DNA of 64,000 bases from Ostreococcus lucimarinus. Lineage: Eukaryota. The stretch lies in NCBI GenBank assembly GCA_000092065.1, contig CP000585.1; one strand, 5' to 3'. Below are positions 48,388 to 49,762 of this stretch, piece after piece (position 1 is the stretch's first letter; each line of letters starts with the position of its first letter). The notes beneath the pieces were generated by a model. That model saw only the letters and a program-made list of their open reading frames with translations. It was not told the DNA's origin and searched no databases. A program made the translations under genes and the position numbers.

Positions 48388-48884
48388 CTAGAACAAAGAG
48401 GTCTTCTTCATGATGCGGAAGAATTCTTCCTCGTTGACTTCGCCGTCACCGTCGCGGTCGGCTTCGTCAATCATCTCTTGGAGTTCTTCGTCCGTCATGT
48501 TTTCACCCAATTCCTTGGCGACGCGTTTCAAGTTCTTGAAGGAGATCTTTCCAGTTTCGTCGTCATCGAACAGTCGGAACGCCTTCATGATTTCTTCTCG
48601 GCTGTCGCGTTCGCCCATCTTGGCCGTCATCATGGCGAGGAACTCCTCAAAGTCGATGGTGCCGTTACCATCCTTATCGATGTCCGCGATCATCTTCTTG
48701 ATTTCATCCTTGTTCGGTTCGAAACCAAGAGCACGCATCGCAACCTTAAGTTCCTTCGCGTCGATGGTTCCGCTCCCATCGGTGTCAAACAAGTCAAACG
48801 CTTCGCGAATCTCTTGCTTTTGCTCTTCAGACAACCCCGAGGAGCGTCCTTTACCCTTGCGCGCCGGTCCAGCCTGCGTTCACG
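48388..48884 (-). CDS. CEN: Centrin (caltractin), 4 EF-hands; exon 2, initiator codon in a short upstream exon
   Basis: Near-identical to canonical centrins ('[38 protein letters not shown]...[53 protein letters not shown]'). The ORF-table start is TTG. The in-frame upstream '[15 protein letters not shown]' ends at an acceptor-like 'aacgcag'. A candidate 6-nt exon 1 'ATGTGG' plus a GTACGG donor lies ~43 nt upstream (about 48928-48933). Confidence 0.85.
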
Positions 48885-49762
48885 CAAAACATTCGAGCGT
48901 CCGTCAGTCTCCCGTACCCACATCGCGTCGCGTTTCGCTCTCAACCGCCCCCGCGACGTCGACGCCGCGCGCGCGCGACGCTCGACCGCCCCCGTCGCTC
49001 GTCCCATCGCCGCCCACGACGCCATCGACCCCACATTCGCGCGCATATCATCCAGCGATAATACACATCCCACGCCCACGCCCCATCGCCTCCCCTCGCG
49101 CGTCGGCGCCCATCGAGCCCTCCCATTTCCAACGCCACAGATCGAGCGCCAACGATCCAACGCGTGCGCGCACGATCAACGCCCTCTCGCGTTCCTCGAT
49201 CACCCGTTCGACCCGATCGCGCGCGCGACGCGCGCGACGAAATCTTCCCGCGCGATTTCCGCCGTCCGAGCCGACGCGCGACGCGCGACGCGCGACGTGG
49301 GCGGCGATTCCGCGCGACAATCCGAATCGCGCGATTATGCGCTGGAATCGTCCATCGTCGATCGTCGTCCGCGTCTCGTCGACGCGTCGCGATCGCGGCG
49401 CGCGCGCGGTATCCGCGGGCGCATCAAAACGCGCGCGCGTACCATGTCGTGTGATTTCGCGAAGTCGCGTCGCGGTGTGCGCGCGCGGGGGCGCGTGGTC
49501 GGAGTGTCGTCACCGCGCGCGCGAAACGATCTGATGGGCGTTTGTGGTATTAAATATGTAAATGTACATTTCAACCAACGCGTCGTTATACATAGAGCTG
49601 TCGTGTGATTTTATATGCACATCGCTCGTGATAAATTTTGTCGGTTTGAACGGTCGACGACGACAGCTCGAACCGCTCGAGCGACGCGCGCCAGAGCGAC
49701 GCGGGCGCGGGCGCGAACGCCAACGAGGAGCGACGGAAGGGAAGACGACGCGCTTTCGGACG

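Follow-up and report, generated by a model that had tools for sequence, protein, structure and literature searches.

A start codon at the end of a distal first exon as the best explanation for the 5' end of an Ostreococcus lucimarinus centrin gene

The minus strand of the window (the whole 64,000-nt stretch of Ostreococcus lucimarinus contig CP000585.1 that was analysed) carries the sole centrin (caltractin) gene of this Ostreococcus, and its reading frame raises a simple question: where does translation begin? On translation, the frame runs for 161 codons from GCT at 48873 to the stop TAG at 48390-48388, and, as the original prediction had recognized, it has no usable start ATG. No in-frame ATG occurs before the one for the Met of 'KVAMRALG', which lies inside EF-hand 1 (Pfam EF-hand_6 spans residues 22-51 of the 162-aa model), and a mechanical open reading frame (ORF) caller begins at TTG 48834. 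The same prediction had proposed that the frame continues upstream as a basic tail, that it ends exactly at a splice acceptor, and that a two-codon exon (ATG TGG) lies beyond a very short intron, with the caveat that the true exon 1 might be a different, more distant one.

The centrin frame and its 5' boundary

The gene product is nearer to centrins than to calmodulin. It has four EF-hands (Pfam EF-hand_7, E 1.4e-35, two stretches; EF-hand_1, four stretches), and comparison with solved structures in the PDB gave 292 bits (E 1e-86) for caltractin 3kf9, 257 bits (E 8e-76) for centrin 3qrx and ~251 bits for centrin-2, with calmodulins lower at ~154-158 bits. The database proteins closest to it are metagenomic read-through calls and the O. 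tauri caltractin, and contigs L002-L007 are close to the window sequence without being identical to it.

Before EF-hand 1, a basic N-terminal extension of 15 codons stands in frame, much as had been foreseen. When the window was compared with O. tauri (L001), L008, and L017, which together represent four Ostreococcus-like lineages, these codons differed mainly at third positions, i.e., synonymously; judged by this pattern of substitution, the tail is coding. Directly upstream of the acceptor AG (48875-48874), similarity collapses and indels appear in the same comparison. The mostly synonymous changes on one side and the collapse with indels on the other indicate that cag/GCT is the true coding/non-coding boundary (here and below, a slash marks an exon boundary). 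The position is exactly the 'aacgcag/GCT' that had been proposed, between 48874 and 48873, and a phase-0 acceptor precedes the Ala codon in all Ostreococcus and Micromonas-like loci examined. Upstream of GCT, the frame holds two further open codons, ACG CAG (TQ), and is then closed by TGA (Table 1).

For O. lucimarinus introns that are confirmed by ESTs and lie off chromosome 2, Irimia & Roy (2008, PMC2483917) give GTGCGTG as the donor consensus and find the branch motif ACTGAC in 87%, in its extended form GACTGACG in 66%. The window carries the extended motif exactly, and CTGAC lies 27-33 nt from exon 2 in Ostreococcus loci and 36-48 nt in Micromonas-like loci. Motifs of the ACTGAC type are sparse in the window, as expected of intron-poor DNA. 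The expectation that the centrin coding sequence needs an upstream ATG-bearing exon is supported.

Table 1. Features of the centrin locus in window coordinates, followed by the corresponding one-codon exons and donors in related loci
Feature	Position	Strand	Sequence or basis	Intron 1 length
Exon 2: centrin codons 2-162 and stop, C-terminal ...RIMKKTSLF	48388..48873	-	translation, Pfam, PDB relatives	
3' splice site CAG	48874..48876	-	cag/GCT, or tag/GCT in L008, in all loci	
In-frame TGA closing the exon-2 frame, 6 nt upstream of the acceptor	48880..48882	-	CGA in sister strains (L002 and others)	
Branch-site motif GACTGACG	48902..48909	-	identical to the extended Ostreococcus branch motif (PMC2483917); branch A 48904, 31 nt before exon 2	
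Originally predicted ATG TGG (48923-48918) with GTACGG (48917-48912)	48912..48923	-	in window clade only (L002-L007, L009-L013)	
5' splice site GTACGCG of intron 1	49436..49442	-	5/7 match to O. lucimarinus non-chromosome-2 consensus GTGCGTG (PMC2483917)	
Predicted intron 1, phase 0, between codons 1 and 2	48874..49442	-	conserved donor and acceptor	569 nt
Most likely start codon, an ATG that closes exon 1 (5'UTR and ATG)	49443..49445	-	cacgacATG/GTACGCG; homologues in O. tauri, L008 and four Micromonas-like loci	
DNA topoisomerase VI subunit B (TopoVIB), divergent; likely start MPKKP at 49763	49763..51781	+	ORF, synteny	
Window and L002			cacgacATG/GTACGCG	569 and 570 nt
O. tauri L001 and L022			acgaagATG/GTGCGCG	438 and 433 nt
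L008			atcgacATG/GTGCGCG	418 nt
L014 (Micromonas-like)			actacaATG/GTGCGTC	718 nt
L015 (Micromonas-like)			tacaaaATG/GTGCGTA	651 nt
L016 (Micromonas-like)			cacaaaATG/GTGCGTC	639 nt
L020 (Micromonas-like)			tttacaATG/GTGAGTC	851 nt

Candidate first exons

All in-phase ATG...GT pairings ahead of the acceptor were tabulated lineage by lineage. Wherever the available sequence reached far enough upstream, in three Ostreococcus and four Micromonas-like lineages of the Mamiellales, a one-codon ATG/GTRCG (GTGAGT in L020) was present. We consider it highly probable (roughly 0.85) that the centrin ATG forms the very end of a first exon separated from exon 2 by 569 bases. The non-coding DNA around this distal ATG is essentially unalignable between the three Ostreococcus species (the global MAFFT alignment paired the distal ATGGT of the window with that of L008, but not with that of O. 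tauri), and the conservation of ATG/GT is therefore meaningful. Dinucleotide shuffles of the 572 nt upstream in the window yielded ~0.33 candidates in total (exon lengths of 1-4 codons, GT[AG]CG donor), a rate at which a one-codon match in at least four independent lineages is not expected by chance. The orthologous donors GTGCGCG and GTGCGTC match the consensus GTGCGTG at 6/7 positions in a plain consensus count. The distal ATG itself has a purine at -3, would gain a G at +4 after splicing, and is preceded by no other ATG for at least 120 nt. It stands 317 nt from the divergent TopoVIB ATG in the window and 321 nt in O. tauri, while the proximal exon would make this spacer ~840 nt.

Two further lines of evidence come from relatives of the window's species. 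MERC, for which 775 Tara eukaryotic metatranscriptomes were assembled at the protein level with Plass (bioRxiv 10.1101/386110), contains a congener sequence, P0036 (ERR1711959_637678), that reads ...ATLDRRDIM/AGAARK..., with M and not MW before Ala. Only the N-terminal junction of P0036 was used, since the assembled sequence appears chimeric downstream (internal deletion, divergent C-terminal half). The genomic contig L017, found via P0030, has the same tail and reads ...tatcgtttgcgcgcag/GCTGGTGCGGCT, i.e., ...cgtatcgtttgcgcgcag/GCTGGTGCGGCTCGTAAAGGA, with an intron acceptor at the junction point, and GACATCATG was not found in the 138 nt upstream of this acceptor. Taken together, the M before Ala in the transcript and the absence of GACATCATG from the adjacent genomic DNA indicate that the congener mRNA is spliced here, that its exon 1 ends in AUG, and that its intron exceeds 138 nt; an mRNA joining ATG to codon 2 was seen in this congener only. 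The annotated O. tauri RCC1115 caltractin OUS47915.1 (GCA_002158475.1, KZ155776.1) starts M-AGPARK and has 162 aa in a 915-nt gene range, dimensions that leave 3 nt of coding sequence for exon 1 and call for an intron of ~430 nt. Comparison with this annotated model of a related alga, a kind of check that the original prediction had suggested, returned an upstream ATG exon and a MAGPARK start. The ATG of that model (L001:3001) precedes GCGTCG, implying a GC-AG intron, and the conserved ATG/GTGCGCG lies 12 nt upstream (L001:2989); to judge from this motif, exon 1 of OUS47915.1 is probably slightly misplaced, with the protein unchanged. Cross-lineage conservation and the congener junction make it most likely that splicing in the window's own species creates this ATG/GCT junction too. 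Of what had been proposed for exon 1, it is the caveat about a more distant exon that fits best, in view of the conserved ATG/GTRCG 569 nt upstream, the spliced congener sequence and the annotated O. tauri MAGPARK... start.

If the distal ATG is the start, exon 1 would be 5'UTR ending with ATG 49445-49443, and a U2-type phase-0 intron (49442..48874; donor GTACGCG, branch GACTGACG, acceptor CAG) would be removed. Exon 2 (48873..48388) would supply codons 2-162, so that the mature mRNA would read ...CACGAC AUG/GCU GGA CCG... and the predicted product would be MAGPARK...KKTSLF, 162 aa. The spliced junction is predicted to be CACGACATG/GCTGGACCGG, also CGACATG/GCTGGACC, with the junction k-mer ACACGACATGGCTGGACCGGCGCG, and the proximal ATG TGG/GTACGG would sit unused inside intron 1. 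An Rfam scan of 48300-49800 gave chance-level matches only (E > 0.3), and hence no snoRNA or other known RNA in the intron. A k-mer search for conserved blocks within intron 1 revealed none: it returned only low-complexity CG-rich matches and GCGATCCGTTGGCG. The latter (L001 about 3284-3297; ~130 nt upstream of exon 2) is common to the first introns of O. tauri and L008 and not clearly present in the window; it could be either fortuitous or a short intronic element kept by conservation.

JGI metagenome junction scans, protein look-ups, and an N-terminal profile search brought up no transcript of the window's own species. A pattern for spliced contigs in JGI metagenomes that excludes the genomic AG before GCT (BGGCTGGNCCNGCGCGCAAGGGTAA) had 0 matches; the unrestricted exon-2 pattern returned 6 contigs, all genomic, which contributed L008 as a third lineage, besides strain variants. 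When 25 guessed N-termini (MAGPARK..., MWAGPARK..., partial, TTG-start and M+AVGSARRD forms) were looked up exactly in the protein collection, the sole match was a 116-aa form from the internal Met of 'KVAMRALG', and a profile search with the N-terminal 44 residues returned only short exon fragments of other algae (MSYRK... types). The MERC centrins inspected (P0036, P0050, P0052, P0066, P0071, P0085-P0087, P0091, P0101, P0113, and P0118) mostly begin with 'MG', usually with a short run of UTR-like residues ahead of the real Met, and P0049 and P0074 start directly at the real Met (MSGY...). The 'MG' may come from a template-switching oligo whose ...ATGGG end was taken for a start; if so, the sequences that carry it would mark mRNA 5' ends, and P0036 would imply a 5'UTR of ~45 nt.

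The proximal ATG TGG/GTACGG is present as originally described, though the intron that it implies is 44 nt and not 43. Its use would place the transcription start within ~80 nt upstream of 48923 and, through a 44-nt intron (48917..48874), give MWAGPARK..., 163 aa, as the sole or an alternative, clade-specific promoter form (junction GCGATGTGG/GCTGGACCGG, also GATGTGG/GCTGGACC; junction k-mer GACGCGATGTGGGCTGGACCGGCG). The motif is in phase, its GT donor agrees with the Ostreococcus consensus at 5/7 positions, the 82 nt upstream of its ATG contain no ATG, and no close strain has lost it, not even L010, the most divergent. With a strong donor, such a candidate arose in 4.2% of 5000 dinucleotide shuffles of the upstream 572 nt (ATG, at most 4 open codons, GT[AG]CG donor, 30-100 nt intron), and with any GT donor a candidate of this type appeared in 27% of 2000 shuffles, so that it goes only modestly beyond chance; by our own estimate, zero changes in 24 nt are expected ~18% of the time at the ~7% divergence of L010, which makes clade retention uninformative. 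Outside this clade, the two-codon exon is absent: O. tauri reads gaaaac/GTAACGG, with no ATG; L008 reads ATGTGAACG, where ATG is followed by TGA with no in-phase GT; and L017 has no comparable exon within 138 nt upstream of its acceptor. Moreover, the branch motif would begin 8 nt after the GT, with the branch A at intron position 14, a distance that, to judge from U2-type introns elsewhere, appears very tight for U1 and U2 binding. The genome papers on O. tauri and O. lucimarinus reportedly assign Ostreococcus introns of 40-65 nt to the low-GC half of chromosome 2. The window, at ~60% GC (2-kb bins 0.51-0.73, mostly about 0.6), does not resemble that low-GC, intron-dense half. Small chromosome-2 introns have a weak branch signal and a GTRNGT donor (PMC2483917); the 44-nt candidate fits them in length, but it has a strong canonical branch motif of the non-chromosome-2 type and the donor GTACGG. 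Finally, the congener transcript has no Trp codon between M and Ala, and MWAGPARK... is absent from the protein collection searched. We regard the proximal exon as unlikely to be the start, and it is probably a fortuitous clade-specific look-alike, a decoy inside intron 1. It seems quite improbable that the window clade gained it as a second MW start exon via the 44-nt intron, which would then be a compact U2-type intron outside the chromosome-2 class that brings an alternative N-terminus and promoter. Splice-site strength was rejected as a discriminator, since the distal GTACGCG and the proximal GTACGGG both score 5/7; it is the geometry of donor and branch site that sets the two models apart.

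Exon 1 might instead be another upstream ATG exon, such as ATGCGCGCGAAT/GTGGGGTC at -173 (MRAN, 161-nt intron), or lie beyond the region examined, as several in-phase ATG...GT combinations (13 listed) occur in the 720 nt upstream and no own-species transcript came to light. These other candidates have poor donors (GTGGGGT, GTCGAGC) and none is conserved in O. tauri or L008, while past about -700 the opposite strand carries the TopoVIB gene, and we hold a first exon elsewhere to be very unlikely. An unspliced RNA carrying GTGAACGCAGGCTGGACCGG and starting at a non-AUG codon, either ACG 48879-48877 or TTG 48834, would agree with the frame being open from ACG CAG GCT and with the TTG starts that ORF callers report (P0017, P0018, and P0030). 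Against this stand the coding constraint on the tail upstream of TTG, the exact branch motif and CAG at the right distance, the AUG directly before the Ala codon in the congener mRNA, and L008, where TAG directly before GCT prevents in-frame upstream initiation and the tail AGPARKGKG is conserved nevertheless; translation without splicing is accordingly the most remote of these alternatives, with hardly any probability.

Strain variation, annotation, and neighbouring genes

Among the close strains (L002-L013), the proximal stretch upstream of AG measures 42, 44, or 45 nt, with TGA or CGA, the variation falling between branch site and 3' splice site (48874-48901 in the window). In strains with 45 nt and CGA, the end of the intron is open and in frame, leading to read-through 'centrin-1' calls of 212-230 aa (P0003, P0135, P0139, P0146, and P0147). 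Prokaryote-style or metagenome callers give a 148-aa protein from the TTG, a 116-aa fragment from the internal Met, or a 212-230-aa read-through, and recognizing the conserved ATG/GT exon leads to the correct 162-aa product.

With ~317 nt between their ATGs, centrin and TopoVIB share a promoter region. The mechanical ORF over-extends TopoVIB by 67 codons (49562-49763), and an AT-rich patch, acatatttaatacc (about 49545-49560), lies in the spacer between the two genes. The divergent pair is also found in O. tauri (L001 2668) and in the Micromonas-like contigs L014-L016, and the neighbours of the window centrin match O. tauri scaffold KZ155776.1 and several metagenome contigs. Convergent with centrin is a 1676-aa ORF (43098-48128, plus strand) with coiled coil and a C-terminal Sad1/UNC (SUN) domain, the latter by synteny with PF07738 calls in L001 and L002. 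It contains two in-frame tandem arrays, one at 43683-45062 (345-nt unit, 4.0 copies, 100% identity) and one at 45374-47309 (408-nt unit, 4.7 copies, 83%), and the O. tauri model at the position of this gene has 216 aa only. A SUN protein beside centrin brings to mind Mps3 and Cdc31, partners in the yeast half-bridge. Across the centrin locus, antisense ORFs of 374-417 aa were rejected as GC-rich artefacts.

Relation to known gene structures

As an algal caltractin, the product resembles the Chlamydomonas centrin 3qrx and the Scherffelia dubia protein 3kf9 in its four EF-hands, basic N-terminal tail, and similar C-terminus. At the very N-terminus, core chlorophyte and other centrins (P0011, P0028, and P0037) start MSYRK-AV(G/S)...ARRD, whereas Mamiellales genes appear to start M-A(V)G..., and from this comparison the SYRK codons appear to be missing from Mamiellales centrin genes. 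The O. tauri orthologue OUS47915.1 shares the neighbours of the window gene (TopoVIB divergent, SUN-domain gene convergent) and has the one-codon coding exon predicted for it; it differs in its tail, ...GRTNGLTEEQ, and in a public-model ATG 12 nt downstream of the one homologous to that of the window.

The predicted centrin intron is similar to the canonical Ostreococcus introns outside chromosome 2 in its exact GACTGACG ~30 nt from the AG and, with 5/7 positions agreeing, in a donor of GTGCG type. It departs from them in having A at +3 and C at +6 (GTACGCG against GTGCGTG) and in its length, 569 nt being above the reported O. lucimarinus median of 111 nt and mean of 168 nt (PMC2483917, Table 2).

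In the survey by Nielsen & Wernersson (2006, BMC Genomics 7:256, PMC1626468), start-codon introns are phase-0 introns between codons 1 and 2 and are over-represented in short, highly conserved proteins. In the window, an ATG stands directly before a GT donor, and the acceptor lies in phase 0 before codon 2. The predicted centrin intron has this already-known start-codon-intron architecture and is an ordinary gene structure, and the O. tauri orthologue is already annotated with a one-codon exon. It is mildly notable as a long intron retained across two genera of intron-poor algae, and its retention in Ostreococcus and Micromonas-like genomes offers a small data point on why 5'-proximal introns persist, e.g., through expression enhancement. 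Set beside the class described there (PMC1626468), the centrin gene is alike in that its ATG would form the last three bases of exon 1, with a phase-0 intron directly after, and in encoding a short, conserved protein; it is unlike the class in being a centrin gene of intron-poor prasinophytes whose unusually long intron (418-851 nt) is kept in two genera.
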